Below, piece after piece: positions 1,548 to 61,291 of a stretch of 64,000 nt of DNA. Source of the DNA: Candidatus Dojkabacteria bacterium (GTDB lineage: Bacteria; Patescibacteriota; Dojkabacteria; B142; OLB20). The stretch covers positions 1,042,209 to 1,106,208 of the forward strand of contig CP129475.1 in NCBI GenBank assembly GCA_030583785.1, read 5' to 3'. Below the pieces are notes generated by a model. That model ran no database searches, had not been told where the DNA came from, and saw only the letters and a program-made list of their open reading frames with translations. Position 1 is the stretch's first letter. Each line of letters opens with the position of its first letter. The position numbers were made by a program, and so were the translations under genes.

Positions 1548-1567
1548 AGATAGAGGATAACAATTAA

Positions 1568-1593
1568 GGTCATGGCGCAATTGCGCCATGACC
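1568..1593. promoter_or_regulatory. Perfect 26-bp inverted repeat GGTCATGGCGCAATTGCGCCATGACC in the divergent tdh / M20 intergenic region. Candidate operator or RNA hairpin.
   Basis: Read directly from the sequence. It has an 11-bp stem with a 4-nt centre and is GC-rich in an AT-rich spacer. Confidence 0.4.
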
Positions 1594-3811: not shown

Positions 3812-4087
3812 ATGAATCATAAACACGATAAAAGCGCTAAAACACGAGCCATTCACAGGATTAAAATCGTTAAAGGTCATTTGACTAAAATCCAGAAAAT
3901 GCTGGATAACGATGAGTACTGTGTTGGTATTGTGCATCAATCTCGCGCTGTGCAAAGTGCGCTTAAAAAACTTGATAGCCTGATCATCGAAAACCATCTT
4001 AAGACTTGTGTAATCGATCAAATACAAAATGGAGAAGAGGATCGAGTTGTGGCTGAACTGTTAAAATTATTTGATTACAAAGATTAA
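3812..4087 (+). CDS. csoR: CsoR/RcnR-family metal-sensing transcriptional repressor (copper)
   Basis: RAIHRIKIVKGHLTKIQKMLDNDEYCVGIVHQSRAVQSALKKLDSLIIENHLKTCV matches the CsoR pattern (R.RRIeGQvrgi.rMie.d.YC.diL.Q..Av..AL......ll.H...C). Confidence 0.85.
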   Translation: MNHKHDKSAKTRAIHRIKIVKGHLTKIQKMLDNDEYCVGIVHQSRAVQSALKKLDSLIIENHLKTCVIDQIQNGEEDRVVAELLKLFDYKD

Positions 4088-4091
4088 TAAT

Positions 4092-29160: not shown

Positions 29161-29189
29161 TTCACTTAGCAATCTTCAATTGCTATAAT
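29161..29189 (+). promoter_or_regulatory. Candidate promoter (TTCACT - 17 nt - TATAAT) immediately downstream of rpsI, in front of the PEGA/secretion-like cluster
   Basis: Read from the sequence. Confidence 0.3.
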
Positions 29190-29208: not shown

Positions 29209-29904
29209 GTGAAATTTTGCGTAAACATGCTTAAAAAACTGCTTGCCGTAATCATTTTAATAATTATTCTTGCGGCTCTTGCGTTTTGGTCTCCTTGGCA
29301 GAAATGGGATTTGAGTTTTTCAAGACTGCTCGGGATTGATGCCAGAGAAGAGTTTGCTGCACTCAAGGTTAAATCATTAGCCGGGGATCTTGATGTATAT
29401 CTGGACGGAGAGCTTGTGGGTCAAGTTTCAGCAGAAGAGGACTTTCTAGAAGTATTTCCCATTGACCCTGGTGAGCATACAGTAAAACTAGTAAGAAATT
29501 CTACAATCTCTTATCCAGAAGTTATTAAGAAGCTGAACTTTGAGCCTGCAGTGGATGTGATTATCGGTTACGAGATTGGCCCAAATGAAGCCTTCTCAGA
29601 GGGGCATATCTTATATGCCAGAAGAAGTTATACAGCTAACGAAAATCCACTTCTAGAGATATATTCTGTACCAGAAGCTGTTCGGGTTCTATTAAATGGC
29701 GAAGAGATCGGACAGACACCTCTAAGAAGCATTTCTCTACCTTTAGACACAAAACATAAGCTTAGATTCGAAAAAGATGGATACGATTCTTTAGAAATCG
29801 AGATATTGCCCGACAATCAATCAGATAGAGAAAAACTTAAAAATACAGTCTTAACATTAGAGGTAAACTTATTTGCCCAGCCTATACCAATTGTTGAACA
29901 ATAA
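29209..29904 (+). CDS. Membrane-anchored PEGA-domain protein. The start may be the ATG at 29227.
   Basis: An N-terminal TM helix followed by two PEGA-like beta modules (YSVPEAVRVLLNGEEIGQTPL; DVYLDGELVGQVS). Confidence 0.55.
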   Translation: MKFCVNMLKKLLAVIILIIILAALAFWSPWQKWDLSFSRLLGIDAREEFAALKVKSLAGDLDVYLDGELVGQVSAEEDFLEVFPIDPGEHTVKLVRNSTISYPEVIKKLNFEPAVDVIIGYEIGPNEAFSEGHILYARRSYTANENPLLEIYSVPEAVRVLLNGEEIGQTPLRSISLPLDTKHKLRFEKDGYDSLEIEILPDNQSDREKLKNTVLTLEVNLFAQPIPIVEQ

Positions 29905-32900
29905 TGTCGCAAAAACTAAACAATACAAGTAAATACCCAACCTCTCTGTTAGTTTCGGGAGGCGATGCCTTGGGGATAGAAATTGCCAAATCATTACTAG
30001 AACAGGGTGGATATGTAATTATAATTGACAATATTTCTCAGAGAGCTCAAGAGATTTATTCTCAGCTCGGGAGCTATGAATTATTGACACTTCTAGATTA
30101 TGATTCGATTGCTACTCTGGACGACGACCTGCGAAGGCTTGATTATGTTTTCTATTTTAAACATCAGTCGAGCGATCTGTTTGAGTCGTTATCATCCCAA
30201 GATTTTTTGCAGGCATCCAATTACCTTGATGCAGTTCTAGATCTAACAACAAAATTTGAGGCAAAGTTCTTGCTGACAACCTCGATCAAGGCTCATCAAT
30301 TTGCCATTGAATCAGGAGAGACAAAAAAAACAAATAAATACTCAGATATTGAAATACAAAAGTACAGCGAAGGATTGGTCGAGGAGTATCGAGATCAAGT
30401 TGGTATAGATGCCAGAATAGTTAGGCTCGGTGAACTACTGGGCAAGGGAATGGATATTGCAGCGAATACAAAGCTAGTAAAAATGATGTATCAAGCCATA
30501 AACGGAGAACATCTTACATTACCTGGCGATGGCCTTGAAAGTGATTACTATGTTCATTATCTTGATGCTGCCTACGGCATATTAAAGGCACAATTCTCTA
30601 TGAACACGAGAGCAAAAACATTCTCTTTGGCGAATGACGAAGAAGTCACCTTGCTGTCAATAGCCTATAAACTACTTGAACTAGAGCCTGATGCTAAAGA
30701 GATTATCTTTAACCAAAACGATAATAAACTTCCACCAATCAAGATTTATCATCCTGCCCCGAATCTTAATACCATCGGCTGGAAGCCGAGAGTTAGTCTT
30801 GAACGGGCTCTAGTTCAGTCTTTGGACTACATGCGAATAGAACAAGAAAAAGAGACAAAGGTTCCAGATGCCCCTTCTGGCGATAATCAACCAGAAGCTA
30901 GAATCGAAAAAAAAGGCTTCTTAGAACTAATTCGTGGTTTTTTTTTCGTTCAAACTAAGCAAAGCAAAAATGAGAGCGAAGAAGATCAATCAATAGACGG
31001 GGCTCTGCAACGACTTGTTCAGGAGAGAAAGATGCAAGAAAGAATGCGCAAAGGAAGTATTGTCCTTGCCAATTCCAAAATCCGTCAAAGACTAAAACCA
31101 CAAAAGCAACTTACTACCCTCGAAAGATTTGCAAAACAGTTGAATAAGTCATTTTCTTCACTAAAAAAGCATTTCTATTTTTTAAGAAATATTACTCTCG
31201 GCGATTTTGCACTTATCATTGGGGGTTTAATTGCCTTTTCAATTCTCTATTTTTTGATAGTTTCCCCGATTTTAAGTCTGGGTAGAAATATATATTTCAT
31301 CTCTACAAATTCAGACGGTCTTGTTAATGCCCTTCAGGCTTATGATATCGATTCCGCCACAGAGCGTGCCGAAAACATAAATACTAATCTTGCTGAGGCG
31401 CAACTCCGATTAGCAGACATAAACTTTCTTTTCGGCCTCTTGCAACAAAGGGACGAGTACCTTCAATACCAAACTCTACTTGCAGATGGGAAAGAGTATT
31501 CTGCTGGTTTAATCGATACCTTAAGAGCTCTTCAACCCTTTTCCCAACTAGTTAAAGAGTTTGAGCCAAATGTTGTCTATCGCATTAGTGAAGGAAATTT
31601 ACTCGCCGCAAGTCCTGCTCCTATCATGGCCACTTTAATTGAAGATATTAATAACAATTCTGCGGCAATTCGAATCGGGGTCGCCAGAATGGAGAAAAGT
31701 AAAGAACGATTAATTGCTGGTATCGAGAACTCACCAGATTTTCTTAAGCAGATTATTAAACCTTCGATTATTGATATTAATGGCTATTATCAAAACTTTT
31801 CTTCCTTAGCGACCTCCTATGAGTTTATGCCAAAGCTATTAGGCAGAAATTCTCAAAAAGCATATCTTCTTGTTGTCCAAGATAATGCAAGATATACAGC
31901 TGGAGGTGGTGAAATTGTCGGGTTTATATATTTCCAGGTGAAAGATGGATCTTTAGCGGGAATATCTGCGATTCCTATCTCCAGTAATCTAAATGCAGAT
32001 CTTCCCTTGTCCAGTAAGGCAATTTCCTCAATAAATCTTCTCTCGAACAAAGATGTTAATTCAGAAAATGCATTACTTAGCGATGTGGCACTTATTGGAA
32101 ACACTGATTTGCGATTACAGGCCTTAAAAGAAATATTTATGGCTAATGAAAACAAACCTGTCGATATCATTGCTTCTGTTAATCTTAATCTTCTTGAAGA
32201 GTTTTTAAGATACAGAGGTGCGGTTGAATATCAGCAGGTAAATTTTTCTGATGATAACTTACTGTCAGGTATAAACTTATTAATGGGTTCAACACAAACA
32301 AAGAGTAATAGGGATAATATCATTCTGAACTTGTATTCAAAAACAATTGCTCGAGAGTTTAATAATCTGAGTGACGACTTTCTAAATACAGTTCAGATTG
32401 TTGCTCAAGCAAGAGAATCTGGTGATTTGCACCTTTACTCAGAAGAGATTGATCTAAAAAATTATTTGATAGCTACATCAACTTCTCCTTCTCAGGCATC
32501 AGATAGAATTAGTTTCGGACTAAATTATGATCAAGAGAAAATCCTGATTAATAAATATCCGATTATTAATATATCTGTGATTGTTGATGTAAACAAAGAC
32601 TTAAGTACTAGTAAGCAAATAATAGTATCTGCAGCTGGCACAGAAGGCTTGCAGAATATTTATGTTTGTAATCCTAACGGATCGAAAAACTTCACTTATC
32701 CAGGGGTAGATCCCTTGCTTGTTACAAATACTTTCAGTTCCGACATCTTTTGTACTATCTTCCTAGAAGACGATGATATTCGCTATGAAATGTTCTTTGA
32801 TACTCTGACCTTTGAAAATAGTTCCTCAACAGGTTATAATTACAATCTGGAGTTAGTAAAGAATCCAGGGATAAGCGCAAACTACGACATAGAGTTTCGC

Positions 32901-33020
32901 TTTAATCCTGAACTAGAGGTAAACCCCCAAAGCGTAGACTATTTAGAGCAGGGTGGTTCATTCATTTACTCCGGCGTCCTTAAAGGCGATTTAAGATTTA
33001 GATTTGATATTAAACAATAA
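29904..33020 (+). CDS. 1038-aa bitopic protein of unknown function. It has a degenerate Rossmann/epimerase-like cytoplasmic domain, a single TM near aa 430-455, and a ~580-aa extracytoplasmic domain.
   Basis: N-terminal LLVSGGDALGIEIAKSLLEQGGYVIIID is a GxGxxG-like Rossmann motif. The central hydrophobic helix is FALIIGGLIAFSILYFLIVSPIL. The large C-terminal region has no recognisable motifs. Confidence 0.6.
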   Translation: MSQKLNNTSKYPTSLLVSGGDALGIEIAKSLLEQGGYVIIIDNISQRAQEIYSQLGSYELLTLLDYDSIATLDDDLRRLDYVFYFKHQSSDLFESLSSQDFLQASNYLDAVLDLTTKFEAKFLLTTSIKAHQFAIESGETKKTNKYSDIEIQKYSEGLVEEYRDQVGIDARIVRLGELLGKGMDIAANTKLVKMMYQAINGEHLTLPGDGLESDYYVHYLDAAYGILKAQFSMNTRAKTFSLANDEEVTLLSIAYKLLELEPDAKEIIFNQNDNKLPPIKIYHPAPNLNTIGWKPRVSLERALVQSLDYMRIEQEKETKVPDAPSGDNQPEARIEKKGFLELIRGFFFVQTKQSKNESEEDQSIDGALQRLVQERKMQERMRKGSIVLANSKIRQRLKPQKQLTTLERFAKQLNKSFSSLKKHFYFLRNITLGDFALIIGGLIAFSILYFLIVSPILSLGRNIYFISTNSDGLVNALQAYDIDSATERAENINTNLAEAQLRLADINFLFGLLQQRDEYLQYQTLLADGKEYSAGLIDTLRALQPFSQLVKEFEPNVVYRISEGNLLAASPAPIMATLIEDINNNSAAIRIGVARMEKSKERLIAGIENSPDFLKQIIKPSIIDINGYYQNFSSLATSYEFMPKLLGRNSQKAYLLVVQDNARYTAGGGEIVGFIYFQVKDGSLAGISAIPISSNLNADLPLSSKAISSINLLSNKDVNSENALLSDVALIGNTDLRLQALKEIFMANENKPVDIIASVNLNLLEEFLRYRGAVEYQQVNFSDDNLLSGINLLMGSTQTKSNRDNIILNLYSKTIAREFNNLSDDFLNTVQIVAQARESGDLHLYSEEIDLKNYLIATSTSPSQASDRISFGLNYDQEKILINKYPIINISVIVDVNKDLSTSKQIIVSAAGTEGLQNIYVCNPNGSKNFTYPGVDPLLVTNTFSSDIFCTIFLEDDDIRYEMFFDTLTFENSSSTGYNYNLELVKNPGISANYDIEFRFNPELEVNPQSVDYLEQGGSFIYSGVLKGDLRFRFDIKQ

Positions 33021-33027
33021 ATAAACG

Positions 33028-33492
33028 ATGCAACCAAAATTATTACTTACACAAGAAGGGTTTGATGAGCTAGAAAAAGAGCTAAACGAAAGGATTAGCG
33101 TGACACGCAACAAGATTGCAGATGATATCGATCATGCTAGACAGCAGGGAGATCTTTCTGAAAACGCTGCCTATAAGGCAGCTATGGAGGCTAAGGAATT
33201 CAACGAAAATCGTATTGCTAAAATCGAAGACATGCTAAAGAATGCAGAAATTTCTGTTGCTTCTAAAGGCAAAAAGGTCGATATCGGAAAAACTGTCACT
33301 CTAGTAATTAAGGGGGACAGCAAACCTATAGAATTTCAAATTGTCGGCCACAGCGAAGCTGATCCAGCTCAAAGAAAAATCTCGCCAGAGTCTCCAATTG
33401 GTTCTGCTCTTATGGGTAAAAAAGAAGGAGACAAAGTTTTAGTAGAACTTCCTGCTGGCTCTGTTGAATATCTCATAAAAAAGGTAAACTAG
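33028..33492 (+). CDS. greA: Transcription elongation factor GreA
   Basis: LTQEGFDELEKELNE... coiled-coil plus FKBP-like C-terminal domain. Confidence 0.9.
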   Translation: MQPKLLLTQEGFDELEKELNERISVTRNKIADDIDHARQQGDLSENAAYKAAMEAKEFNENRIAKIEDMLKNAEISVASKGKKVDIGKTVTLVIKGDSKPIEFQIVGHSEADPAQRKISPESPIGSALMGKKEGDKVLVELPAGSVEYLIKKVN

Positions 33493-33519
33493 GATTAGTA
33501 AATAGAGTAACCAATACAA

Positions 33520-34758
33520 ATGGAACGACATTCTGTCCCACAGAACATCATGGATGTTGAATTCAAGTTGTTCGGATCGTTCACTATCAAACAATTTGCT
33601 TATCTTGCAGCAGGCTTCATTGGAGCCTTGGTTGTATTCGTGTCGCCATTTCCTGACTTACTAAAGATGATACTGTTGCCTATGAGCATGATTCTAGGCA
33701 TATTTCTTGGAGTAATAAAAATTAATGGCCAACCATCAAGTGTGTTCTTGAGTAATTTCATAGCAGCTCTTTTCTCATCTCAAACAAGAATTTGGCAAAA
33801 GAGCTCAAAGACACCAGAAATGCTTCAAGAAGCTAGGGCTGCAATTAACCCAAAAGATGTTGAGGTTTTACAAGTTGCTACAAAAACATTAAATCGAAGC
33901 TCTAAACTGATGCCACTGCAGAGTCTAGTTATTGAAGAAGAGAACGAACTAGATAAAGAGGAATCAGATCGTCTTGAACAGATTGAAAAGCATTTCAATT
34001 TTGCCGTTGGAGATCTAGAAAAGGAGACAATGAGAGCTGAAATTGAAACAAAAAAAGTAAGTCCTCCAAAGTTGCCATCTCCTCCAGATACAGCAATAGA
34101 GCAGCCTCCGATTTTTCATATTGATCCCGAAGCCGATAATTTGGCAGGATCTATTGCACATAAAGAATTACAAGGTGAGCCAATTTTAAGAACAAATAAA
34201 TATGCAACCATCTATAAACAGATGCAGTCGCAAACAAATAGACCAATTGTTGAGGAAACTTCACAGCCTAAAGCTGAAGAAATAGTACAAGAACAGTTAC
34301 CAGAGCAGGTACAAGGGCAGGTACAAGAGCAGGTAAAGGAACAAGAAGTTGTAACCGACTCGGTGACTAATGCAGATGCTCAAGTTCAGGCAGAGCCCTC
34401 AGTATCTGTAGAAACCGAGAATAAGGTGGAAAATAAAGAGGCAATTGTGACACAAGTTCAGACAAATATTCCAAGTCCACCACTTATTCCTCAGCACAGA
34501 AAACCAAATATTGTTGCTGGAATTGTTGTTGATAAGAACGACAAGCCTATTGCTCATGCCACCATCGAGTTTAAAGATGAGAGAGAACAACTTCTAAGAA
34601 AGGTCACGACAACAGTAAATGGTACATTTGGATTAAGTACCCCTCTTCCTAACGGAACATACCGGGTTGATATTAATGCTGAAGGCTTTAAGTTTAATCG
34701 TTTTGAGCTTATACTTTCAGGAACGGCATTGCCTAATTATAAATTTAAGGCCAAATAA
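33520..34758 (+). CDS. PrgI/VirB3-like two-TM conjugation/T4SS protein fused to a long low-complexity (Q/E/V-repeat) region and a C-terminal carboxypeptidase-regulatory-like beta-sandwich domain
   Basis: N-terminal VPQNIMDVEFKLFGSFTIKQFAYLAAGFIGALVV...MILLPMSMILGIFLGV matches the PrgI/TcpE/VirB3-like hairpin-TM pattern. A QVQGQVQEQVKEQ repeat follows. The C-terminal domain is IVAGIVVDKNDKPIAHATIEFKDE...VNGTFGL...GTYRVDINAEGF. Confidence 0.5.
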   Translation: MERHSVPQNIMDVEFKLFGSFTIKQFAYLAAGFIGALVVFVSPFPDLLKMILLPMSMILGIFLGVIKINGQPSSVFLSNFIAALFSSQTRIWQKSSKTPEMLQEARAAINPKDVEVLQVATKTLNRSSKLMPLQSLVIEEENELDKEESDRLEQIEKHFNFAVGDLEKETMRAEIETKKVSPPKLPSPPDTAIEQPPIFHIDPEADNLAGSIAHKELQGEPILRTNKYATIYKQMQSQTNRPIVEETSQPKAEEIVQEQLPEQVQGQVQEQVKEQEVVTDSVTNADAQVQAEPSVSVETENKVENKEAIVTQVQTNIPSPPLIPQHRKPNIVAGIVVDKNDKPIAHATIEFKDEREQLLRKVTTTVNGTFGLSTPLPNGTYRVDINAEGFKFNRFELILSGTALPNYKFKAK

Positions 34759-34763
34759 GATAG

Positions 34764-35480
34764 ATGGGACTTTTCACACAATCAACAGTTAGCACACAGG
34801 CTCATCTACCTATCGAAGATGTTAGAGATGACCTAGTTGTATTAAAGAATGGGAATGTATCTTTAGTACTAGAAACAACTGCACTTAACTTTGAACTCCT
34901 TTCAGAAAGAGAACAAGATGCCAAGATCCTATCTTTTGCAGGGTTACTAAATTCTCTTGGTTTCCAAATGCAGATTGTAATTATGACCGAAAGAACAGAC
35001 ATGTCAATATACATTGACAGGCTTAGAGCTTATAGGGAGTCACAAATATCAAATTCGTTGCGAAAACAGATCGATATTTACATGAGGTTCATCAATAATC
35101 TAACTATTAATACAGAGGTTTTAGATAAAAGGTTTTTTGTGATAATTCCAGAAATTGTTGCAGAAGTCCAAAGAACTAGTATGATCAAACAGCTATTTGG
35201 CAAACCTGTCAAGATCACAAATATTAGAAGTATTCTTGATAGAGCCAAAGCTAGGGTCTATCCAAAAAGAGACCATTTGATCAAGCAATTCCAAAAAATG
35301 GGTATTTCAGCGCGGCAATTAAATAACGAAGAATTGATTCGTTTGTACTACTCAATCTACGATCCAGATAAGGCGGGAGTTTCAAAGTTAGAGCTCAATC
35401 CATCAGAGATAACAACAGGAATGGTTGGCGCCCTCAAGACAGAGATAGAAGATAAACAATTATCAGAAGTAAAAAAATAA
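34764..35480 (+). CDS. Hypothetical protein between the VirB3-like and VirB4-like genes. It may be related to the VirB4 N-terminal domain.
   Basis: Tightly packed with its neighbours (6-nt and 1-nt gaps). The motif LVVLKNGNVSLVLETTALNFELLSEREQDAKILSFAGLLNSLGF...QIVIM resembles the early-partition region of TraC/VirB4 proteins. No catalytic motifs are present. Confidence 0.4.
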   Translation: MGLFTQSTVSTQAHLPIEDVRDDLVVLKNGNVSLVLETTALNFELLSEREQDAKILSFAGLLNSLGFQMQIVIMTERTDMSIYIDRLRAYRESQISNSLRKQIDIYMRFINNLTINTEVLDKRFFVIIPEIVAEVQRTSMIKQLFGKPVKITNIRSILDRAKARVYPKRDHLIKQFQKMGISARQLNNEELIRLYYSIYDPDKAGVSKLELNPSEITTGMVGALKTEIEDKQLSEVKK

Positions 35481-35481
35481 G

Positions 35482-37440
35482 ATGGGATTAATTCCTTTTA
35501 TCGGAAAAAAGAAAATACAGAAACCTGAAGTCCAAAACGGAAATTTGGCTCAGTCGACTGCATCTCAAGCAAAAAATCATACAAACTCTGTAAGTGTGCA
35601 AATGCAAGGTCAGCCGATAGCTCAAGAAAATAAAGCTGTACAAATGTTCTCTCAGGGCGTGCTGGATGTAAAGGATATAATTGCACCACCGGCTATTGAA
35701 ATTGACTTTAACCATCTTCTTGTAGGAGGAACTTACTTTCGAACTTTCTTTGCTACCGGATTTCCTAGATGGGTAGGCGCTAATTGGTTAGCACCACTGA
35801 TCAATTTTGAGAAACCTTTAACAATTAGTACATTCTATTATCCTGTGGATTCTGCGTTAATAATGCAAAGGTTAAAAAGAAAGATTGCAGAAATGCAGGC
35901 GACGCTAAATCTTGATATTGAGGCCGGAAAAATTCCTGATCCAAGCGTTAAAGTTGCGCTCAGAGACGCAGAAGATTTGCAGGATCAAATAGCCAGTGGC
36001 AACGAAAAGTTCTTCCACTTCGGCTTGTATGTTACTGCGAGAGCAAAGAATCTTAAAGAGCTTGAAAGAATATCCAGAAATGTAGAGTCAACTCTATCTG
36101 CCATTGGTGTTATTGTGAAAATTGCCTCACTTCAACAAGAAGAAGGGTTCATTACTTCTATGCCGTTAGCAGAAGATCGAATTCATTTGACCAGAAATAT
36201 GGATACGACTTCTCTGGCAACAACATTTCCTTTCGTCTCTTCAGAGCTCAGCATGGATGACGGCATTATGTATGGCGTAAACAAGCACAATAAAAGCCTT
36301 ATTGTCTTTGATCGCTTTCAGATGCCGAATGCAAATATGGTAATCTTTGCTACATCCGGAGCAGGAAAATCATACTTTGTTAAACTCGAGGCGATGCGAA
36401 GCCTTATGCTTGGAACCGATGTCATAATTATTGACCCTGAAAAAGAATACGAAAAGATGACCACCACAATAGGTGGAGAATATATTTCCTTCAGCCAGGA
36501 TGGAGATCAGAAACTTAATCCGTTCGAGTTATCAGGAATGTTTGATAAAGATGAAGACGAACTTCGTTTCAAGATTCTTTTCCTTCAGGGTTTAATAAAG
36601 ATTATGGTTGGTGGAAGTCTTAGCCCGATTGAAACGGCAATCTTAGATAGAGCTTTAATCCTTACCTACAAAGAAAAAGGTATTTCCCCTGATCCGGCAA
36701 CTCAAAGAAGAGAACCACCACTGCTAGAGGATCTTTATAAGGTACTCAATGCGATGGCCGAACCGGAAGCACATAATCTTGCTCAGCGACTTGAAAGGTA
36801 CCTTAAAGGTAGCGCAGCAGGTATCTTTGATAGAAGGTCAAATGTAGAAATCAAAAATACTTTTACGGTATTTAGTATTCGAGATCTGACCGATGAAATG
36901 CGACCTATCGCAATGGCAATGATGCTTGATTATATCTGGACTAGAGTTAAAAAAGATCGTCGACAAAGAATATTGATAATTGACGAGGCATGGTGGATGA
37001 TGCAGTATCCTGATGCTGCAAGATTCGTATATTCTGTTGCCAAAAGAGCTAGAAAATATGCACTTGGGCTTACTACGATCAGTCAGGATGTTGAAGATTT
37101 TCTTGATTCAGATTTTGGAAAAGCAGTAGTAACTAACTCGTCTATTCAAATCCTTCTTAAACAAAGTCCTGCAGCCGTTGATCGAATTAAAGAGGTATTC
37201 TACCTTTCAGATGGAGAGAGAGATTACTTGTTAAGTGCAGGGGTTGGAGAGGGATTATTCTTTGCAGGAAACAATCATGTTGCAATGCAGGTAATTGCCA
37301 GTGAGAACGAACATAATCTTATCACTACAAATCCAAAGGAGTTGCTTAAGAAAGAAGCAGAAGAAAAAGCGCTGGCTGGGCAGGCAGAGAATGCTCAACC
37401 GGCAAGGGCAGACTTAGCTTTAAATAGTAGCGAGCAATAA
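35482..37440 (+). CDS. VirB4/PrgJ/TrsE-family type IV secretion ATPase (Gram-positive conjugation type)
   Basis: Walker A FATSGAGKSY, Walker B RILIIDEAWWMM, and an N-terminal APPAIEIDFNHLLVGGTYFRTFFATGFPRWVGANWL block typical of TrsE/PrgJ/VirB4. Confidence 0.8.
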   Translation: MGLIPFIGKKKIQKPEVQNGNLAQSTASQAKNHTNSVSVQMQGQPIAQENKAVQMFSQGVLDVKDIIAPPAIEIDFNHLLVGGTYFRTFFATGFPRWVGANWLAPLINFEKPLTISTFYYPVDSALIMQRLKRKIAEMQATLNLDIEAGKIPDPSVKVALRDAEDLQDQIASGNEKFFHFGLYVTARAKNLKELERISRNVESTLSAIGVIVKIASLQQEEGFITSMPLAEDRIHLTRNMDTTSLATTFPFVSSELSMDDGIMYGVNKHNKSLIVFDRFQMPNANMVIFATSGAGKSYFVKLEAMRSLMLGTDVIIIDPEKEYEKMTTTIGGEYISFSQDGDQKLNPFELSGMFDKDEDELRFKILFLQGLIKIMVGGSLSPIETAILDRALILTYKEKGISPDPATQRREPPLLEDLYKVLNAMAEPEAHNLAQRLERYLKGSAAGIFDRRSNVEIKNTFTVFSIRDLTDEMRPIAMAMMLDYIWTRVKKDRRQRILIIDEAWWMMQYPDAARFVYSVAKRARKYALGLTTISQDVEDFLDSDFGKAVVTNSSIQILLKQSPAAVDRIKEVFYLSDGERDYLLSAGVGEGLFFAGNNHVAMQVIASENEHNLITTNPKELLKKEAEEKALAGQAENAQPARADLALNSSEQ

Positions 37441-38009
37441 TGGACCAATTATTTCAGCAAGAATTCACTTTTACTCTAACCGGAACCGCTCTTTTAGGAG
37501 TTGTTCTATTTTTTATCGTTGCATCGCTTGCATTGGTAATACTGATTTTCTCTTTGATTCGAAAAATTCAGTTATTGCAAAAACCAAAGTACGGTTTTCT
37601 TGGAAAACCTATCTTCTCTGTGCTTGCACTTGTTGGAATTGCTACCACAATGATCTATTTTAGCTACTCCTTCTCAAATCAACCGGATTTTCAAATCAGT
37701 GCGAATCGAACTGTTAATGCAAGTATAGAATACAGGCAGGTTGGAATTAGTGGCACAAAGAAACTTGTGGAATTTCAAGCAGTTCCAGTCGTAGATAATC
37801 GCGAGTATGGATTAAGCTCTGATCGCTTCGAGATTCTTTGGAGGGTAAATAATGTCGATGGAACAGAAAGAATTGAGTATGAACGAACTAAGAATAACCC
37901 CAGTGCCGTATATATTGAACTTGATCCAGGTTCGTATACAGTAAGTGCTATAATCGTTTTTGAGGGTAAATCATATCAGTTTGTTGAACCGGTTATAATA
38001 AATCCCTAA
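37440..38009 (+). CDS. Small two-TM protein with a beta-rich ectodomain, translationally coupled to the VirB4-like gene
   Basis: Its ATG overlaps the VirB4-like stop. N-terminal hydrophobic helices are followed by a soluble C-terminal domain. Confidence 0.5.
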   Translation: MDQLFQQEFTFTLTGTALLGVVLFFIVASLALVILIFSLIRKIQLLQKPKYGFLGKPIFSVLALVGIATTMIYFSYSFSNQPDFQISANRTVNASIEYRQVGISGTKKLVEFQAVPVVDNREYGLSSDRFEILWRVNNVDGTERIEYERTKNNPSAVYIELDPGSYTVSAIIVFEGKSYQFVEPVIINP

Positions 38010-38396: not shown

Positions 38397-38403
38397 TAAA
38401 GAA

Positions 38404-38435
38404 AGAACCCGCTTTTAAAGCGGGTTCTTCGTTTT
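38404..38435. terminator. Bidirectional terminator hairpin (AGAACCCGC-loop-GCGGGTTCT + T-run) between rnpB and the convergent yugP-like gene
   Basis: A 9-bp stem with TTCGTTTT downstream and an A-run upstream. Confidence 0.6.
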
Positions 38436-39249: not shown

Positions 39250-39930
39250 ATGAAAAATCTATCTACCAAAACCGTGCTGTTTGCATCATTAATTATCGGT
39301 GTTTTGTTCCTTGCCGGTATTGTGCTTGCAGCAGGTAATCAAAAAGATTCGGGTCCTGCACCAACGCTTCCCATACTCCTCGAAGAGTTCAGCGACTTTC
39401 AGTGTCCTGCTTGCGGTGCTTACTTTGGACTCATCGAAGAAGTGCTTGATGAATATGGTTCAGATATTGAATTCGTCTACAAGCATTTTCCTCTAAGAAC
39501 AATCCATCCAAACGCTTTCGCTGCAGCAATTGCTTCAGAAGCAGCCAGAGAACAAGGTAAATTTATGGAGTACGCAGAAGAACTATTTGCCAACCAAAGA
39601 AACCTTGGAGATGAAACTTATGTAGCAATCGCAGCCAAACTCGAGCTAGATATAGACAAATTTGAAAGTGACCGTAAAAGTCCAGATATTATTGCCCGAG
39701 TTAATGCAGATATTGCAGACGGAAACTCAAGAGGTGTTAATGCAACACCAACTTTCTATATTGAAGGTAAAAAAGTTAATTTCGGAACAAGCGATCCTGC
39801 ACTTAAACTCAGAGAGCTTCTTGACGAACAAATCCGAAAGGCAAAAGAGGCTGTTAGTTATACAGATTCAATAACTCCAACCGAAGTAGATCAGCTAGGT
39901 GAAGAAGAATCCGTTGAAGATAATCAATAA
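39250..39930 (+). CDS. Membrane-anchored thioredoxin-fold thiol:disulfide oxidoreductase (DsbA-like)
   Basis: An N-terminal TM, the FSDFQCPACGAY CxxC active site, and a DsbA-family pattern. Confidence 0.75.
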   Translation: MKNLSTKTVLFASLIIGVLFLAGIVLAAGNQKDSGPAPTLPILLEEFSDFQCPACGAYFGLIEEVLDEYGSDIEFVYKHFPLRTIHPNAFAAAIASEAAREQGKFMEYAEELFANQRNLGDETYVAIAAKLELDIDKFESDRKSPDIIARVNADIADGNSRGVNATPTFYIEGKKVNFGTSDPALKLRELLDEQIRKAKEAVSYTDSITPTEVDQLGEEESVEDNQ

Positions 39931-40517: not shown

Positions 40518-41327
40518 ATGGAACGGGCAACTTCGCAATACCCAAAAATTGATCTAGGTTTGGTCAACGCTTCTTCAAATAGACAGCTAATGATATTACC
40601 ACGGGAAATTAAGCCAGAACCAGCTTTTGAACAAACTAGAGGCAATGCAATAGTTAGATTGAGTGGCAATATTATTGATTATGAACTATCTGGACTCCCC
40701 TATAGAGATCATCCTTTTTATGGATATCAGCCTGCTTGGGGAGAGTTCCGCGAATTTGTTCTAGCAGGGTGTCTCTTTAATGGAATTCATCTCGTGTGTA
40801 ATCTTGCTGATCGAATTCATGTGGACAGAATGAACCATTTTATCGAAGATGGTGCAAAAGCAGATATTGAATATAATTTCTCAATACCTCAACAAGGTTT
40901 CCCCTTTGAGCCTGAATATATGTCTTTGCGAGTAATAACATATCCAGAAGGTATTGTTCGTGAGTATCATGGTGATGGAGGTAAAGTATTCGTTTCTTTG
41001 TTGGATACTTTTAACATTGTGCGCTATTATCATGCCGTTAATGAGATCGCTTCAGATGGAGCAGAGATTATTATTGATGAATTTATAGGTCCAGCAGGTT
41101 TTACGACCACTTCAGAATTCAGGGCGATTCTTGAGGAAGCCGGTTTCGAAATTGTAGAAGAAGCTAGATATCTCCAAGATGAAGAAGTACCAGAACAGAT
41201 AAGGGATAAAAATTGTCAACCTAGATATGGTGCCATTGCTCGAATCGTCTGCCGAAGACCTCAAGATGACGATGATGTAGATGATTACTCAACCATTCCA
41301 GATGGTGGAATTGGTGTTTTTGCCTAG
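40518..41327 (+). CDS. Hypothetical protein, a paralog of the next gene. Acidic C-terminus.
   Basis: Shares a C-terminal block with 41403..42167 (IIIDEFIGPAGFTTTSEFRAILEEAGFEI versus SISSEDFIGPGGYSSREQCLQLFRNAGFTC). No other motif was recognised. Confidence 0.45.
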   Translation: MERATSQYPKIDLGLVNASSNRQLMILPREIKPEPAFEQTRGNAIVRLSGNIIDYELSGLPYRDHPFYGYQPAWGEFREFVLAGCLFNGIHLVCNLADRIHVDRMNHFIEDGAKADIEYNFSIPQQGFPFEPEYMSLRVITYPEGIVREYHGDGGKVFVSLLDTFNIVRYYHAVNEIASDGAEIIIDEFIGPAGFTTTSEFRAILEEAGFEIVEEARYLQDEEVPEQIRDKNCQPRYGAIARIVCRRPQDDDDVDDYSTIPDGGIGVFA

Positions 41328-41402: not shown

Positions 41403-42167
41403 GTGGCTGGTGTAGCAACATTAGAAACAAGTGTCGATAATCTCACGGACTACCTAAGGTATCACTCGGGGAAAGAAGTTATCTTGTCAATTGGTTGTGG
41501 TAGAGAAATAACAACACCTAGACATTTTGACCCGAAAAACCAAGTATTAATCGGAATGGATCCACAATTGGACTACCATGATGCAGATGGATCTATAATA
41601 GGAATAAAGGATGGTTATTGTCATGTTGATCGTAGACTTAATATACCATCTCGTATTGCTGATAGAGTTGAGACTCATGCAACCATTGCTTACATTGCGT
41701 CTTATCCTCTGGATCCCTTTTCGTCGAATAGCTATTCTATGGAAATTTTTGAGGAAATTCGATCATTAGATAATAATGGTCTTTACCGAGAGTCTAGAAC
41801 AAGATATAACACTAGCAGGATATACGATATTCAAGGTATGCAGGTCGTCTATCAGCGAAGCGTTATGACAGGTAACGATCAATGGAGAGTTATTGACGCT
41901 TCTCATATGATTAATTGGACTCGAGAGCTTGCAAGAATAATTAAGCATGGTGGTTCAATCTCAAGCGAGGATTTTATTGGACCTGGAGGTTATTCATCGC
42001 GAGAACAGTGTCTACAATTATTTAGAAATGCTGGGTTTACTTGTCCGACATTGAGGGAAATAAGGGATCCTCAACAATCTGCTTCTCAGACAATAAGGGA
42101 TAACCAAATTGAAGGAAACGGTTATGGTCAACCCGTTAGCATTTCAGCTAGAGTATTCCATCCTTAG
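41403..42167 (+). CDS. Hypothetical protein with a divergent class I SAM-methyltransferase-like pattern
   Basis: VILSIGCGRE (motif I-like), an acidic VLIGMDPQ (motif II-like), and a C-terminal HGGSISSEDFIGPGG...AGF region. Confidence 0.4.
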   Translation: MAGVATLETSVDNLTDYLRYHSGKEVILSIGCGREITTPRHFDPKNQVLIGMDPQLDYHDADGSIIGIKDGYCHVDRRLNIPSRIADRVETHATIAYIASYPLDPFSSNSYSMEIFEEIRSLDNNGLYRESRTRYNTSRIYDIQGMQVVYQRSVMTGNDQWRVIDASHMINWTRELARIIKHGGSISSEDFIGPGGYSSREQCLQLFRNAGFTCPTLREIRDPQQSASQTIRDNQIEGNGYGQPVSISARVFHP

Positions 42168-45203: not shown

Positions 45204-46040
45204 TTAGATTCTCTTTCCGATTGTAATTAATCGATGAGAACTGCTTCCCAGAGGTGTGCAGGTGATAATTTTTACCAGATCGTCGTCTGCTGCGTTAAAG
45301 ATAGCCATGTCGTCACCCTCGCGAACTGCTTGAGCCACAATTGAGTATTCATAGGATTGGCCATTGTCTGATTCTAGTCTAATGACATCGCCGACTTTGG
45401 CTCTATCAATGAACCAGCATGATCTTGGATCGTTAGGTCCAAAGTATCTACGATGGCAGAGAAGTATCTTTTCCCCTTTGGCGTAAGATGTCGGGTATAA
45501 CCACATTCCCTGATCGAGTGCAGCATCTCCATCTGAACCTTGTATTACAGGTGAGTTAATATTAATAGAGTCGATTACAATGCGAGAGATTCCTGTTGCT
45601 AAAGGATGAGGAGTAGATTTTACAGTTTCGGCATATGCTTTGATTTCTGTGGTTACAAGATTATCACGAATTCCGGATACTACAACCTCTTGTTGCTTAG
45701 GTAACTCAACCTGATTATTGGTGCTGATTCCTGCAACATTTTGGTCATATCGAGATAGTGACTCAGCTCTCGCAACAACAGAAGTTGCATTGAATGTTTT
45801 ATACGGAATAAAGAATCCGTAATCGAACTGAGCGTTAGTTTCGATGGCTAAAGGTGCATACTGCTGAACTTGTTGATTTTCGTTGTTGCTGGAATATGTT
45901 GGTCTTACGCCAATAATTGATGGTAAATCTGCTCCACCAAGCATGCCTAGGACAATGGAGAGTATGCCAAAGAAGGCAACCAACAATGCCCCAATCATTA
46001 TGAAGATGAAGAATATTCCAGATTTATTCGAATTTTCCAT
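45204..46040 (-). CDS. Sortase-family transpeptidase (membrane-anchored)
   Basis: An N-terminal TM, a His in LLCHRRYFG, the catalytic-Cys motif LVKIITCTP (TLxTC-like), and a downstream Arg. Confidence 0.6.
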   Translation of the reverse strand: MENSNKSGIFFIFIMIGALLVAFFGILSIVLGMLGGADLPSIIGVRPTYSSNNENQQVQQYAPLAIETNAQFDYGFFIPYKTFNATSVVARAESLSRYDQNVAGISTNNQVELPKQQEVVVSGIRDNLVTTEIKAYAETVKSTPHPLATGISRIVIDSININSPVIQGSDGDAALDQGMWLYPTSYAKGEKILLCHRRYFGPNDPRSCWFIDRAKVGDVIRLESDNGQSYEYSIVAQAVREGDDMAIFNAADDDLVKIITCTPLGSSSHRLITIGKRI

Positions 46041-46175
46041 ATCTTATAGTAATCAGATACTACTTATTATAGCATAATCGGCATTTTCTAAATAATCATC
46101 ATATATATAGATTATGGAGATAGCCTATAATGTGATATAATCAAATATATTTATTATGTATCTGTTTTATATCCT

Positions 46176-47660
46176 ATGAAAACAGTCATATTTGAGTCAC
46201 ATAAAGACAAACAACTTCGTAAAGGGCTTATCGCTTATTCGGTTGTCCTTTTGGCAGGCTTGTTTGTCGCACTATCAGCAGTTCTATTTGCTGGAAGTTC
46301 AGAGGCCTTAGTTGTAGACAGGGGAATCTCTTGTAGCGGTGCCGCTAGAAGTGGAGCTGAATGCAATGTTTTAGGCTATCCCCAAAATGTAAACCACATG
46401 TTTGGTTGCTATAACAAAGGTGCAGGTTTTAAGTGTTACGAAGTTCCTGCAAACTCTAACGAAGCTTTGCCAGGCTGCTTCCTTGACACAGATGGTCAAT
46501 GGAAGAACTGCGGTTGTGATATTGCAGCTTGCGAAAATGCCTGCAGAAATAACAATGCCAACAATCCAGGTAGCCATACCCAAGGATGGACATGTAATGG
46601 CTGCGGACAAAACTTCTTATGTGGATGTACTGTATCTCCAACAATTGTTCCAACTACAGGCACACCAACTCCACCACCTCAGGGATGTCCAAGCACACAA
46701 GCTAGATTTTTGGTCGGAAATAGCGGTCTTGTAAAAAGTGGTCAGTTCCAGTTAACTTCTGTCCCACCTTTTGAATATAGTGTTCTTATTAATGGAGATG
46801 TTAACCAGAAGTTTCAGGGAACTGTAGTATTAACTACACCAAATACATCCAGAACACATAATAATGGTGATACCAGACAAGTACCAACACCTCATGTTGC
46901 CGGGAACTACAGATTAGTTGCCAGTCTAAACGGCGAGGTTTGCGATACTGCAGAAGTTAGACTCATTAACGCAGAGATTACTAATCTGCAATGCTGGGAA
47001 ACAGGATGTAACGATTCTGATAAACAATGTGCTCCTGGATCGGGACTTAGCTGTGTAAATAATCGCTGTGTAAATCCACAGTATCCAAACAATCCCGATT
47101 GTAAACCAGATGTCACTCTCAAGTGCTGGGAAACAGGATGTTCAACTCAAGGTAATGTTTGTGAGAACGGCCTGAGCTGTTTAAACAATCGCTGTGTAAA
47201 CCCGCAGTATCCTGAAAATCCAACATGTGAGGCTGTTCCAGGCATTACATTAGATAAAATGACACCAAATGGTCCCGGACCATACAATGTCGGTCAAATT
47301 GTTCCGTTTAGAATTACAATTACTAATACAGGACAAACAACCTATTCAGTAATTAGTTTTAGAGACAGCTGGAATACAAGTAGGCTCGATTTCATTCGAA
47401 TAATAAATAACGCCAACGGCAACGATGTAACTTCTAACTTCACAATAAACCGAACTATGGGAGTTGTGAGTAGTAATGACATCACCACATTTCTTGGAGA
47501 TCTTGGACCAGGACAGTCTTACAATCTGAGATTCGAGTTTAGAGCATTGGCAGCTACAAATCGAACCTGTAATGATGTTTCGATAGTGCCAAACGGAGGA
47601 AATCAAATGACTGACGATGCTTGTGTATCGATAAATCAACCTCCACCAACAGATATGTAA
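46176..47660 (+). CDS. Signal-anchored Cys-rich secreted/surface protein with two tandem 44-aa CWETGC...NNRCVNPQYP modules and a C-terminal DUF11/CARDB-like beta domain. No LPXTG motif.
   Basis: An N-terminal TM (LIAYSVVLLAGLFVALSAVLFAG), about 40 Cys, tandem repeats, and a C-terminal ITITNTGQTTYSV...GPGQSYNLRFEF segment. Confidence 0.6.
   Translation: MKTVIFESHKDKQLRKGLIAYSVVLLAGLFVALSAVLFAGSSEALVVDRGISCSGAARSGAECNVLGYPQNVNHMFGCYNKGAGFKCYEVPANSNEALPGCFLDTDGQWKNCGCDIAACENACRNNNANNPGSHTQGWTCNGCGQNFLCGCTVSPTIVPTTGTPTPPPQGCPSTQARFLVGNSGLVKSGQFQLTSVPPFEYSVLINGDVNQKFQGTVVLTTPNTSRTHNNGDTRQVPTPHVAGNYRLVASLNGEVCDTAEVRLINAEITNLQCWETGCNDSDKQCAPGSGLSCVNNRCVNPQYPNNPDCKPDVTLKCWETGCSTQGNVCENGLSCLNNRCVNPQYPENPTCEAVPGITLDKMTPNGPGPYNVGQIVPFRITITNTGQTTYSVISFRDSWNTSRLDFIRIINNANGNDVTSNFTINRTMGVVSSNDITTFLGDLGPGQSYNLRFEFRALAATNRTCNDVSIVPNGGNQMTDDACVSINQPPPTDM
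46986..47249 (+). repeat. Intragenic tandem duplication (2 x ~132 nt) encoding the Cys-rich CWETGC modules
   Basis: Read from the sequence: ...TGCTGGGAAACAGGATGT...AATCGCTGTGTAAATCCACAGTATCC... occurs twice in succession. Confidence 0.6.
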
Positions 47661-48922: not shown

Positions 48923-49738
48923 TTAAACTACTCCATACATTAAAACGATAAAGATTAAAAATACTACAAAATATTCTCCGATAATTGCCTTGCTCAGCGA
49001 ACTTACTTGCTGATGGTGGAATACAGCTACAACGAAATAGAATAGTAATGTGGATAACAAGGCAACTGCAAAGTTATTAAATCTAAATGACTGAAGTACT
49101 AATAGAAATGCAATTAATAATAAAGCACCAACGACAAGTGTTTGCAGGCTTCTATTGTTAATCTGCTGTTTTCTAATTAATAACAGCATTGAAAGAACTG
49201 TGTAGGCGATCAAGATCGCTGCTAGAGTTACCCAGCCACTGCTACCCAAAAATCCGAATGTTTGCAGTGCCGAATCAGAAGAGACGAACATCATGATTAT
49301 GACAATGATGTCGTAAATTGCGTGTGTACCTTGCTCAAGTTTGAATTTGTCTTCGTAGTAGGCCCTTACATTGGTAAATAATATCGAAAAGATAATGAAT
49401 ATTATTGCCAGAATTATTAAGTGGGTGGATTTCTGGTGATTGAAAAAGACGAATAGAACAAAAGAGAAGTATGCAAAGCTAGGCAGAATAAAATGATGGA
49501 TTAAATGGATTAGTTTATCTTTCTCGTCAACTTGTGGTAATTGAAATTGATCGAGTAGTCTTCTGGCGTAGTACTTAGTACTATAAAGCTCGAATAATAG
49601 AATTAGATATAGAAATACACTACCAACAAAATAAAATCTATCTGGAAGGTTTTCTAGCAAGGAAATTAAAAACCAAAAACCAGAAGTGATTACTAAAGCA
49701 TAAACTAGGGGGCGTTTTTTCCAATTTATAATATTCAT
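48923..49738 (-). CDS. Polytopic membrane protein (about 7-8 TM), function unknown
   Basis: Hydrophobicity pattern only. Confidence 0.5.
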   Translation of the reverse strand: MNIINWKKRPLVYALVITSGFWFLISLLENLPDRFYFVGSVFLYLILLFELYSTKYYARRLLDQFQLPQVDEKDKLIHLIHHFILPSFAYFSFVLFVFFNHQKSTHLIILAIIFIIFSILFTNVRAYYEDKFKLEQGTHAIYDIIVIIMMFVSSDSALQTFGFLGSSGWVTLAAILIAYTVLSMLLLIRKQQINNRSLQTLVVGALLLIAFLLVLQSFRFNNFAVALLSTLLFYFVVAVFHHQQVSSLSKAIIGEYFVVFLIFIVLMYGVV

Positions 49739-61282: not shown

Positions 61283-61291
61283 TATTAATAC

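Follow-up and report, generated by a model that had tools for sequence, protein, structure and literature searches.

A pseudo-dehydrogenase joined across the membrane to a DUF4012 ectodomain with a predicted LCP-like core, encoded beside type IV secretion-like genes in a Dojkabacteria genome

In a 64,000-nt stretch of the genome of a Candidatus Dojkabacteria bacterium (contig CP129475.1 of assembly GCA_030583785.1; hereafter the window), a gene for a 1038-residue membrane protein lies close to genes resembling those of a type IV secretion system (T4SS). What could a protein with two large and seemingly unrelated halves do on the two sides of a membrane, and does its location have anything to do with secretion? 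A sequence-only reading of the window had described a degenerate epimerase-like domain in the cytoplasm and a large ectodomain lacking any recognizable motif, and had proposed that the former acts as a cytoplasmic scaffold of a trans-envelope complex. The analysis reported here assigned the ectodomain to the family DUF4012, whose core is predicted to adopt the fold of LytR-CpsA-Psr (LCP) proteins, the ligases of wall glycopolymers, and traced the cytoplasmic half to short-chain dehydrogenases/reductases (SDRs) of the UXS type. In light of these relationships, the scaffold proposal is now better motivated and can be regarded as plausible.

The open reading frame (ORF), which begins with ATG, is certainly a genuine gene, because its closest database protein is 99% identical and there are 207 homologues, more than 100 of them full length. 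Wherever the source of a homologue names an organism, it is Candidatus Dojkabacteria. The possibility that the ORF is a pseudogene or spurious was ruled out by this deep conservation.

The Pfam model for DUF4012 (PF13196) scores 26.7-27.8 bits on the ectodomain, just under its cut-off of 28. The same model matches 49/52 ectodomains of the family (best E 1.5e-28), and alignment by hhalign to 18 canonical stand-alone DUF4012 proteins gave a probability of 100% and an E value of 2.5e-47 over 553 columns. Because this match is so extended, the entire ectodomain is identified as a DUF4012 ectodomain, and on the strength of profile comparison the homology is certain despite the borderline Pfam score. 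The earlier view of a region without recognizable motifs can therefore be set aside. The family is also very large: an exhaustive profile search recovered 6,729 cluster representatives (50% identity) at E≤1e-3.

An AlphaFold2 (AF2) model of the ectodomain, made from a 43-sequence alignment, predicts a helical bundle, an α/β core and a β-sandwich, with a predicted local distance difference test score (pLDDT) of 91.5 and a predicted template modelling score (pTM) of 0.86. In the β-sandwich, the Dojkabacteria family keeps two cysteines (C922 and C950) without exception, probably as a disulfide. This domain gave weak structural matches to the β-sandwich domains of ribophorin and M1-aminopeptidase. 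Because Foldseek matches for the whole ectodomain were weak and mixed, with LCP proteins among them, the core was modelled alone (pLDDT 93.4, pTM 0.90). Searched against the PDB, the core model retrieved LCP structures at ranks 1-29 and 31, including Cps2A, YvhJ, LcpA, TagT/U/V, LytR, BrpA and MsrR. These matches reached an E value of 2.6e-5, with probabilities of 0.85-1.00 and query-normalized template modelling scores (TMq) of 0.38-0.56 over nearly the whole domain, after which there was a sharp drop to non-LCP matches with probabilities of 0.38 or less.

A relationship between the two families was also evident when their profiles were compared. Using an LCP profile built from 100 genuine LCPs, all annotated with PF03816, hhalign matched the DUF4012 profile at a 46-column strand-helix motif, ID-x5-N[LF]-xx[LF]-xxx-h-xxx-G (P 2.3e-5). 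The score of 42 compares with 17.6 for the reversed profile and with a maximum of 22.6 in 80 shuffles. The 100-sequence profile was needed for this result, as hhalign of one single LCP sequence against the ectodomain profile gave nothing. Greedy extension past the 46-column motif added no confident columns, a search of PDB sequences with the ectodomain profile returned coiled-coil noise only, and PF03816 found no match to the window protein at E ≤ 1. The order of domains in LCP proteins is a transmembrane (TM) segment, an accessory domain, the core and an optional C-terminal domain (PMC7831098), and the window protein follows the same order from its TM helix onward.

In the model the DUF4012 core takes the LCP fold; the arginine cluster typical of LCP proteins is missing from its sequence. 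The site residues tested were those equivalent to Cps2A R267, R362 and R374 (the arginine cluster that contacts lipid pyrophosphate), D371/Q378, and the Mg-binding residues D234/D246. In this comparison, made at the level of sequence, the positions that DUF4012 conserves are limited to a basic one (R803, K/R 0.87) and an acidic one at the end of β1 (D660, 0.68). The stretches PRD, RxR and DFDRARRQQ, conserved at 0.8-1.0 in the 100 real LCPs, have no counterpart. DUF4012 proteins instead conserve positions of their own (G668-G669, G682, R803, D754 and D660, in the numbering of the window protein) and carry the canonical signatures QNNxELRPTGGF and RDxNWxPDFP.

Even these signatures have been altered in the window protein, whose core contains QDNARYTAGGG (D660, R663, G668, G669), D754 and R803. 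When judged against canonical invariants defined on 18 stand-alone sequences only, the changes are E277→R663, R279→T665, N341/W342→V/A, K499→L and R548→Y, and only the GG pair, D754 and G989 are retained.

The cytoplasmic half was described by the sequence-only reading as a degenerate domain of the epimerase type, and this description was borne out. The Pfam epimerase model PF01370 scores 33.2 bits on the window protein, relative to a cut-off of 20.9. A profile of 51 N-domains searched against the PDB matched human UXS1 (UDP-glucuronate decarboxylase, also named UDP-xylose synthase; 2b69/4gll) over its full length (E 4e-42, residues 11-328), and UXS1 ranked ahead of other extended SDRs. The states of the motifs were read from the ungapped alignment of the hidden Markov model (HMM) to UXS1. 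The position of the UXS1 catalytic Tyr is occupied by D148 (E/D/Q in the family), that of the catalytic Lys by Q152, which is invariant in the Dojkabacteria family, and that of Glu120 by K129. The catalytic Thr position holds S127, with Ser kept in 87/101 sequences.

The dinucleotide-binding loop has likewise degenerated. The GGAGFVG of UXS1 has become [RKG]-G-x-[DNS]-x-L-G in the family and S18-G-G-D21-A-L-G24 in the window protein, which has lost the first and middle Gly. The two strings that first suggested a Rossmann domain were located at residues 18-24 (SGGDALG) and 37-42 (YVIIID), and the Asp that ends the second is D42, the β2 contact to the adenosine ribose, invariant in 101/101 sequences. 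Y146, Q152, R/K153 and E156 are invariant or nearly so in the Dojkabacteria family. A MAFFT alignment to E. coli GalE placed Y146 at the catalytic Tyr and E150 at the Lys, and was superseded by the UXS1 HMM alignment. An intact YxxxK pair is absent under either alignment, as had been noted from the sequence.

Could the loss of these motifs reflect compositional drift of the genome? A stand-alone epimerase encoded in the same genome keeps both GxxGxxG and YxxxK, which argues that it does not. This internal control (606-1589, minus strand) is a canonical extended-SDR epimerase/dehydratase (PF01370, E 8e-33). Moreover, the N-domain is the best-conserved part of the fusion protein, with a mean column identity of 49% vs 27-32% for the ectodomain. 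To judge from these alignments, the N-terminal ~320 residues descend from UXS-type SDRs, and the pseudo-enzyme reading holds because the catalytic Tyr and Lys are absent and the NAD glycine motif is degenerate.

Fusions of SDR and DUF4012 domains are widespread in Patescibacteria. Among representatives new in the ectodomain search, an SDR-like N-domain was present in 68/68 of those of at least 900 aa vs 3/18 of those of 500-800 aa. Fusions from outside the Dojkabacteria, which come from CPR3, other Patescibacteria and metagenome loci, give high scores with PF01370 as well as PF13196, and they retain GGAGF[IV]GSH, the Lys (in E-A-K-R-F) and the canonical ELR[PA]TGGF. A Tyr at the K-4 position was found in 0 of ~30 alignable examples. 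Conservation of the glycine motif across orthologs, which had been suggested as a check, is divided: the motif is intact in the fusions of other lineages and degenerate in those of Dojkabacteria. The state of the glycine loop co-varies with the residue at the Lys position, intact loops going with Lys and degenerate ones with Gln. Because the Tyr is absent from all fusions aligned and the loop and Lys co-vary, it appears that loss of the catalytic Tyr came early and preceded diversification of the fusion family, and that Dojkabacteria later lost the NAD-contacting features and the DUF4012 signature together.

Two further observations concern the state of individual fusions. Some metagenomic DUF4012 proteins of ~830 aa (loci L108, L109, L115 and L126) match the SDR N-domain profile, have an unrecognizable NAD loop (FSEPCAFTLY) and have their catalytic region deleted; their N-domains represent a more extreme stage of decay than those of Dojkabacteria. 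In the WS6 OLB20 genome (L012, 10001-13131) the fusion gene is split, with an N-domain ORF that stops after 369 aa and an ectodomain ORF that runs from ~11014. The split reflects a frameshift or assembly error, or else a pseudogene of recent origin.

The sequence-only reading also had the topology right. The 37 residues before the single hydrophobic segment include 9 K/R and the 40 after it include 2 K/R and 6 D/E, and this K/R-rich stretch before the helix and acidic stretch after it indicate an N-in/C-out orientation. The extracytoplasmic part, estimated at ~580 residues, was counted at 578. Before the membrane, the charged linker holds a conserved juxtamembrane segment, GALxRLIAERKxQExxRxGSIxxAN, in which L371, R375 and A389 are nearly invariant.

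One way to view a protein of this architecture is as a bifunctional enzyme, in which a membrane-anchored nucleotide-sugar decarboxylase or epimerase feeds an extracellular LCP-type ligase. Both halves come from enzyme families, S127 and D42 are kept, Y146, Q152, R/K153 and E156 hardly vary, and fusions outside the Dojkabacteria preserve GGAGFIGSH, the Lys and the canonical DUF4012 motif. We nevertheless find this improbable, given that no fusion examined has a catalytic Tyr at K-4, that Dojkabacteria have Gln in place of the Lys and carry Asp, Asn or Ser at the middle Gly position of the NAD loop, and that the LCP arginine cluster (PRD, RxR, DFDRARRQQ) has no counterpart in an ectodomain whose canonical DUF4012 invariants have themselves been replaced.

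We give equally little credence to a signalling device, in which a Tyr-less SDR senses NAD(H) or a UDP-sugar in the manner of NmrA and its state is passed across the membrane in either direction. Strong conservation of a cytoplasmic domain that has lost catalysis speaks for such a sensor, as do the conserved juxtamembrane segment and the retention of the NAD motif and Lys in most fusions outside the Dojkabacteria. However, Dojkabacteria lost the two NAD-contacting features together, so dinucleotide sensing is unlikely in the window protein; the protein also has no evident output domain and, unless it oligomerizes, its one TM helix would be poorly suited to passing on a signal.

The surroundings of the gene provide a second line of evidence. 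In the window, it overlaps the stop codon of an upstream gene by 1 nt, as had been recognized: the TAA at 29902-29904 shares its last base with the fusion ATG (TAATG). This partner gene encodes a PEGA-domain protein of ~225-231 aa, anchored in the membrane by its N-terminus and carrying two β-sandwich-like modules on the extracytoplasmic side. Further upstream is the ribosomal-protein/rpoA operon S13-S11-S4-RpoA-L17-L13-S9. Downstream are greA and then genes for a PrgI/VirB3-like protein, a TraC/TrsD-like protein, a VirB4-like ATPase and a 189-aa membrane protein.

This arrangement was compared across 55 evaluable, de-duplicated Dojkabacteria loci, 43 of which could be evaluated for VirB4. A PEGA-like gene lies directly upstream of the fusion in 54/55 loci and greA directly downstream in 50/55, and a VirB4 gene is found within 8 kb downstream in 21/43. 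On an approximate neighbor-joining tree, the VirB4-adjacent loci comprise all early-branching Dojkabacteria lineages, including that of the window, and the non-adjacent loci form one derived subclade, whose members include the complete genomes AP024679.1, OZ246402.1, OY969472.1 and BOLA01000001.1. VirB4 adjacency thus seems, from the tree, to be ancestral in Dojkabacteria and to have been lost once.

A similar arrangement was encountered in a metagenome scan that was seeded with a 9-sequence alignment of canonical DUF4012 cores and returned 80 loci. In the clade nearest the seed (P0230-like), the gene is again a ~1040-aa fusion, and in 9 of its loci PrgI-TrsD-VirB4 follow 4-76 nt downstream. 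The ectodomains of this second clade share only ~15-20% identity with those of Dojkabacteria. In one of the metagenome loci (L091), the four-gene block is bounded by genes on the opposite strand, with RNase H upstream and dnaN and yidC downstream, flanks unrelated to those in Dojkabacteria. A stand-alone DUF4012 gene occurs in the same PrgI-TrsD-VirB4 arrangement in locus L079, and VirB4 lies 5-8 kb upstream of three other fusions.

With VirB4 adjacency in only about half of the Dojkabacteria loci, the proximity to T4SS genes had been considered incidental. This view was dropped once L079, the metagenome loci and the tree had been considered, because the adjacency is the ancestral state of Dojkabacteria and is seen again in a second clade. 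The statement that the gene is co-located and co-oriented with VirB3/VirB4-like genes thus stands as regards strand, ancestry within Dojkabacteria and recurrence in a distant clade, and must be qualified in that greA intervenes and the link is not family-wide. Genome-level co-occurrence with VirB4, another possible line of inquiry, has little power because VirB4 is present in ~80% of CPR (Candidate Phyla Radiation) assemblies. A survey of T4SS genes in Patescibacteria found VirB4 in 2,417/3,035 assemblies and recognized VirB4, TrsD, VirB3, VirB6 and VirB2-like proteins as components, their genes often near the replication origin. The T4SS-like machine is reported to be essential for epibiotic growth in Saccharibacteria.

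Genes for DUF4012 proteins that lack the SDR domain keep different company. These stand-alone genes sit in glycan or polysaccharide clusters. Enrichment of the family in CPR and Gram-positive bacteria has been remarked on before, and its genes occur in capsule and exopolysaccharide (EPS) loci. In the EPS locus of Bifidobacterium longum, the DUF4012 gene lies between a priming glycosyltransferase (GT) gene and wzz, and in locus L074 it is the last gene of a Wzx-GT-Wzy-GT cluster. Some fusions have related neighbors: Wzz is encoded directly upstream of a CPR3 fusion (L068), a PMT glycosyltransferase upstream in L002, and a genuine LCP protein (PF03816, E 4.5e-29) directly upstream of the PEGA-fusion pair in L070 (3081-4688, plus strand). 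The last of these is a Dojkabacteria locus, so that a canonical LCP and an LCP-fold DUF4012 fusion are near-neighbors there. In the subclade of Dojkabacteria without T4SS adjacency, one locus carries a second, stand-alone DUF4012 paralogue of 715 aa (L072, 1-655, minus strand) ~7 kb from the fusion.

These associations are the basis of a strong rival explanation: a general factor for the assembly or attachment of envelope glycopolymers, working with the PEGA partner and having no role in secretion. Its T4SS neighborhood would then be historical or would reflect co-expression in a highly expressed region. The LCP fold of the core and the descent of the N-domain from a UDP-sugar enzyme would suit such a factor, as would the presence of DUF4012 genes in EPS and Wzx-Wzy clusters and next to Wzz, LCP and PMT genes. 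In 22/43 loci, PEGA-fusion-GreA occurs with no T4SS gene within ~10 kb and beside genes for a Mur ligase and BacA/UppP. CPR T4SS genes are also often close to the origin, as are the DUF4012 genes of L065, L069, L079 and L091. We nevertheless consider this explanation somewhat doubtful. The fusion-PrgI junction (4-76 nt, same strand, bounded by opposite-strand genes) has been kept in a clade with very dissimilar ectodomains and different flanks, the adjacency is ancestral across a deep Dojkabacteria divergence, and the gene is not surrounded by a glycan-synthesis cluster in the window. Indeed, neither an LCP gene nor a glycan cluster was found when sought throughout the 64 kb; a GT4+GH57 pair at 60050-62494 resembles glycogen metabolism.

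The explanation that we tentatively favor, at close to an even chance, is that the fusion is a non-catalytic trans-membrane adaptor of the envelope, derived from glycopolymer-assembly proteins and serving as an envelope-facing accessory of the T4SS-like machine. It would be the Dojkabacteria form of a bitopic envelope protein found throughout Patescibacteria. Its UXS-derived SDR domain inside the cell would have lost the catalytic Tyr before the family diversified, and the Lys and NAD glycine loop within Dojkabacteria. The signature polar residues are gone from both halves: YxxxK and GxxGxxG from the cytoplasmic one, ELRPTGG, RDxNW and the LCP arginine cluster from the other. Because the halves lack the signature residues of their parent families and yet are conserved, we infer an adaptor that is non-catalytic or heavily re-tooled. 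The ectodomain and the translationally coupled PEGA partner may engage the wall or a layer of lipid-linked glycopolymer, and the strongly conserved cytoplasmic domain may offer a docking or ligand-sensing surface. A protein recruited in this way from the glycopolymer-assembly toolkit could have become an accessory of the secretion-like machine. Architecture, topology, homologies, core fold, motif states and gene order are results of the analysis, and from them are inferred the lack of catalysis, the contact with wall or glycopolymer and the tie to the T4SS-like system. For this organism, a T4SS accessory role is the leading hypothesis because the PrgI-TrsD-VirB4 block is conserved in two deep clades with different outer flanks.

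Several considerations weigh against this adaptor hypothesis. VirB4 was not found within ~9 kb in most other clades, whether the DUF4012 protein is fused or stand-alone, and the Dojkabacteria subclade without adjacency has kept PEGA-fusion-GreA among genes for ATP synthase, GatB, a Mur ligase and BacA. Where the adjacency exists in Dojkabacteria, greA separates the fusion from prgI. Both gene sets are near the origin (dnaN, yidC, rnpA) in several lineages, and part of their proximity could therefore reflect a conserved origin-proximal neighborhood and not function. The tree was quickly made from a divergent domain, and metagenome loci were sampled in order of their similarity to a single seed. 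The Patescibacteria T4SS survey does not list the fusion protein, and the terms 'Epimerase' and 'PEGA' are absent from it. Losing the canonical residues need not abolish every activity, and the conserved D660, R663, G668-G669, D754 and R803 could constitute a different site. Finally, in the literature library searched, no paper was found that gives DUF4012 a fold or function.

A bolder form of the hypothesis would make the fusion an integral, envelope-spanning subunit of the T4SS-like machine, drawn from a lineage of wall-glycopolymer ligases. Its ectodomain, together with the PEGA and CarboxypepD_reg modules, would anchor or open the wall around the channel, and the SDR domain would dock on VirB4/TrsD or report nucleotide or UDP-sugar status to them. 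We regard this form as unlikely, if well short of far-fetched. Pfam and NCBIfam T4SS families gave no match to the window protein, whose fold matches are to SDR and LCP proteins only. A corollary, if true, is that DUF4012 (at least 6,700 clusters at 50% identity) is an unrecognized sister family of the LCP enzymes, with its own active site.

Two recurrent neighbors merit separate mention. The greA gene stays with PEGA-fusion even where T4SS genes are missing; in the second clade, the corresponding junction lacks it. RNase H genes (RVT_3/RNase_H) adjoin DUF4012 genes or lie within ~2 kb upstream of them in four loci from outside the Dojkabacteria, L065 (9393-9896), L069 (9467-9907), L079 (4787-5191) and L091 (7008-7406). 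This recurrence, near dnaN/yidC/rnpA in L079 and L091, suggests a conserved origin-proximal neighborhood.

The features of the locus are collected in Table 1. The PrgI/VirB3-like protein has two N-terminal TM helices and a long Q/E/P-rich low-complexity linker ahead of its CarboxypepD_reg β-sandwich, a fusion also seen in L002 and in the distant L091. Counting this domain, the PEGA partner and the 189-aa protein with its β-rich ectodomain, the locus encodes several extracytoplasmic β-sandwich modules. The 238-aa protein has no Pfam match here; its homologues are annotated as TraC-like (PF26593), and it is probably TrsD. According to a preprint on Patescibacteria T4SSs, TrsD, which has remote homology to the VirB4 N-terminus, is the most abundant CPR T4SS component. 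The promoter-like site upstream of the PEGA gene belongs to a class whose count in the region is not above shuffled expectation, and the hairpin listed in the table is the sole strong terminator-like element downstream of it. The sequence is compatible with a single transcription unit spanning 29209-38009.

Table 1. Coordinates of the fusion gene, its domains and its neighbors within the window
Feature	Position	Strand	Basis or remark
Fusion gene: pseudo-SDR, linker, TM helix and DUF4012 ectodomain	29904..33020	+	1038 aa
UXS-type extended-SDR-like domain, residues 1-320, catalytically degenerate	29904..30863	+	PF01370, E 4.6e-8
Charged cytoplasmic linker, residues 321-431	30864..31196	+	
Single TM helix, residues ~432-460	31197..31283	+	Hydropathy scan; charge bias on either side
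Helical-bundle stalk, extracytoplasmic, residues 461-645, placed like the LCP accessory domain	31284..31838	+	AF2 model; aligns with canonical DUF4012
DUF4012 α/β core, predicted LCP fold, residues 643-865	31830..32498	+	Core model, Foldseek, hhalign
C-terminal β-sandwich, residues 866-1038	32499..33017	+	AF2 model
Partner gene, bitopic PEGA-domain protein	29209..29904	+	PF08308, E 1e-10; hydrophobic N-terminus
Promoter-like site, TTCACT-17-TATAAT with extended TG, in the 63-nt rpsI (S9)-PEGA gap	29161..29189	+	Consensus match only
greA, conserved downstream neighbor, part of the syntenic triad	33028..33492	+	No functional link implied
T4SS-like cluster as a whole	33520..38009	+	Adjoins the fusion locus
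PrgI/VirB3-like, C-terminal CarboxypepD_reg β-sandwich	33520-34758	+	
TrsD/TraC-like, 238 aa	34764-35480	+	
VirB4-like ATPase	35482-37440	+	
Membrane protein with β-rich ectodomain, 189 aa	37440-38009	+	
Intrinsic-terminator-like hairpin, 12-bp stem	38403..38429	+	Pattern match only

Several other genes of the window were noted. A DsbD-like membrane protein that begins with a heavy-metal-associated domain (4071-5501) is encoded next to a copper-type P-type ATPase (5509-7818), and a DsbA-like thioredoxin is encoded at 39250-39930. Extracytoplasmic disulfide formation fits the conserved Cys pair of the fusion β-sandwich. A sortase gene (45204-46040, minus strand) is divergent from that of a 494-aa cysteine-rich secreted protein (46176-47660, plus strand), in which modules of the form CWETGC...NNRCVNPQYP recur and DUF11 matches weakly; a clean LPXTG sorting signal at the C-terminus was not found for this pair (45204-47660). 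Pfam gave no match at E≤0.01 for four ORFs of 254-271 aa (40518-41327 and 41403-42167 on the plus strand, 48923-49738 and 7896-8669 on the minus strand).

Existing automated labels for proteins of this kind are 'NAD(P)-dependent oxidoreductase' or 'DUF4012 domain-containing protein', and a literature search found no paper tying the fusion to the CPR T4SS. The finding combines known kinds of proteins, an LCP-superfamily fold and a pseudo-SDR, and is not a categorically new system. Its value is partly that a very large orphan family, DUF4012, gains a predicted fold and a testable biochemical neighborhood, the handling of glycopolymers linked to lipid pyrophosphate. The fusion series, in which an SDR appears to have lost its Tyr early and to have decayed stepwise under strong selection while the extracellular half diverged in parallel in Dojkabacteria, is clean natural material for studying how enzymes become scaffolds or sensors. 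Likewise, the known parts of the CPR T4SS-like system (VirB4, TrsD, VirB3 and VirB6) are all at the membrane, and the fusion is a concrete candidate for the missing part that faces the envelope. Because the fusion-PrgI-TrsD-VirB4 block is conserved, this idea is testable in the few genetically tractable Patescibacteria.

How does the fusion compare with proteins that have already been characterized? The bitopic T4SS subunits VirB8/PrgL and VirB10 provide a working analogy only. They share with it a cytoplasmic N-terminus, one TM helix, a large extracytoplasmic domain and a location beside virB3/virB4 homologues, whereas neither sequence nor fold is similar and the fusion is not listed among CPR T4SS components. 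Atypical SDRs such as NmrA and HSCARG are soluble regulators in which a Rossmann fold without the catalytic Tyr serves binding and not catalysis, and which keep the ability to bind dinucleotides. The fusion resembles them in being an SDR without the catalytic Tyr, and differs in that the Dojkabacteria form has also lost the glycine loop and the Lys.

The closest relative of the cytoplasmic half is UXS1 (extended SDR, PF01370), to which it is homologous over the full length of the N-domain, with the β2 Asp and the Ser/Thr position kept. Unlike UXS1, the fusion has D/E148 and Q152 in place of Tyr and Lys, K129 in place of Glu120 and a degenerate GxxGxxG, and it is membrane-tethered and joined to an ectodomain. 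The LCP transferases (Cps2A, TagT/U/V, LcpA; PF03816) share with the other half the α/β core fold (Foldseek probability ~1.0, TMq up to 0.56), the ID-x5-N[LF]-xx[LF]-xxx-h-xxx-G motif, the succession of TM anchor, accessory domain, core and C-terminal domain, and a place among polysaccharide-cluster genes. They are distinguished by their PF03816 match, and by an arginine cluster and second Mg-binding Asp that are not conserved in the fusion. DUF4012 proteins have a signature of their own, altered again in Dojkabacteria, and a far larger helical stalk plus a β-sandwich domain. Relative to typical DUF4012 members (PF13196; for example BL105A_0406 from the EPS locus of B. longum 105-A), which have ~650 aa and an N-terminal anchor alone, the fusion carries ~430 cytoplasmic residues, and the window copy scores just below the Pfam cut-off with most canonical invariant polar residues replaced. 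Throughout all three of its domains, the ectodomain is nevertheless homologous to theirs.

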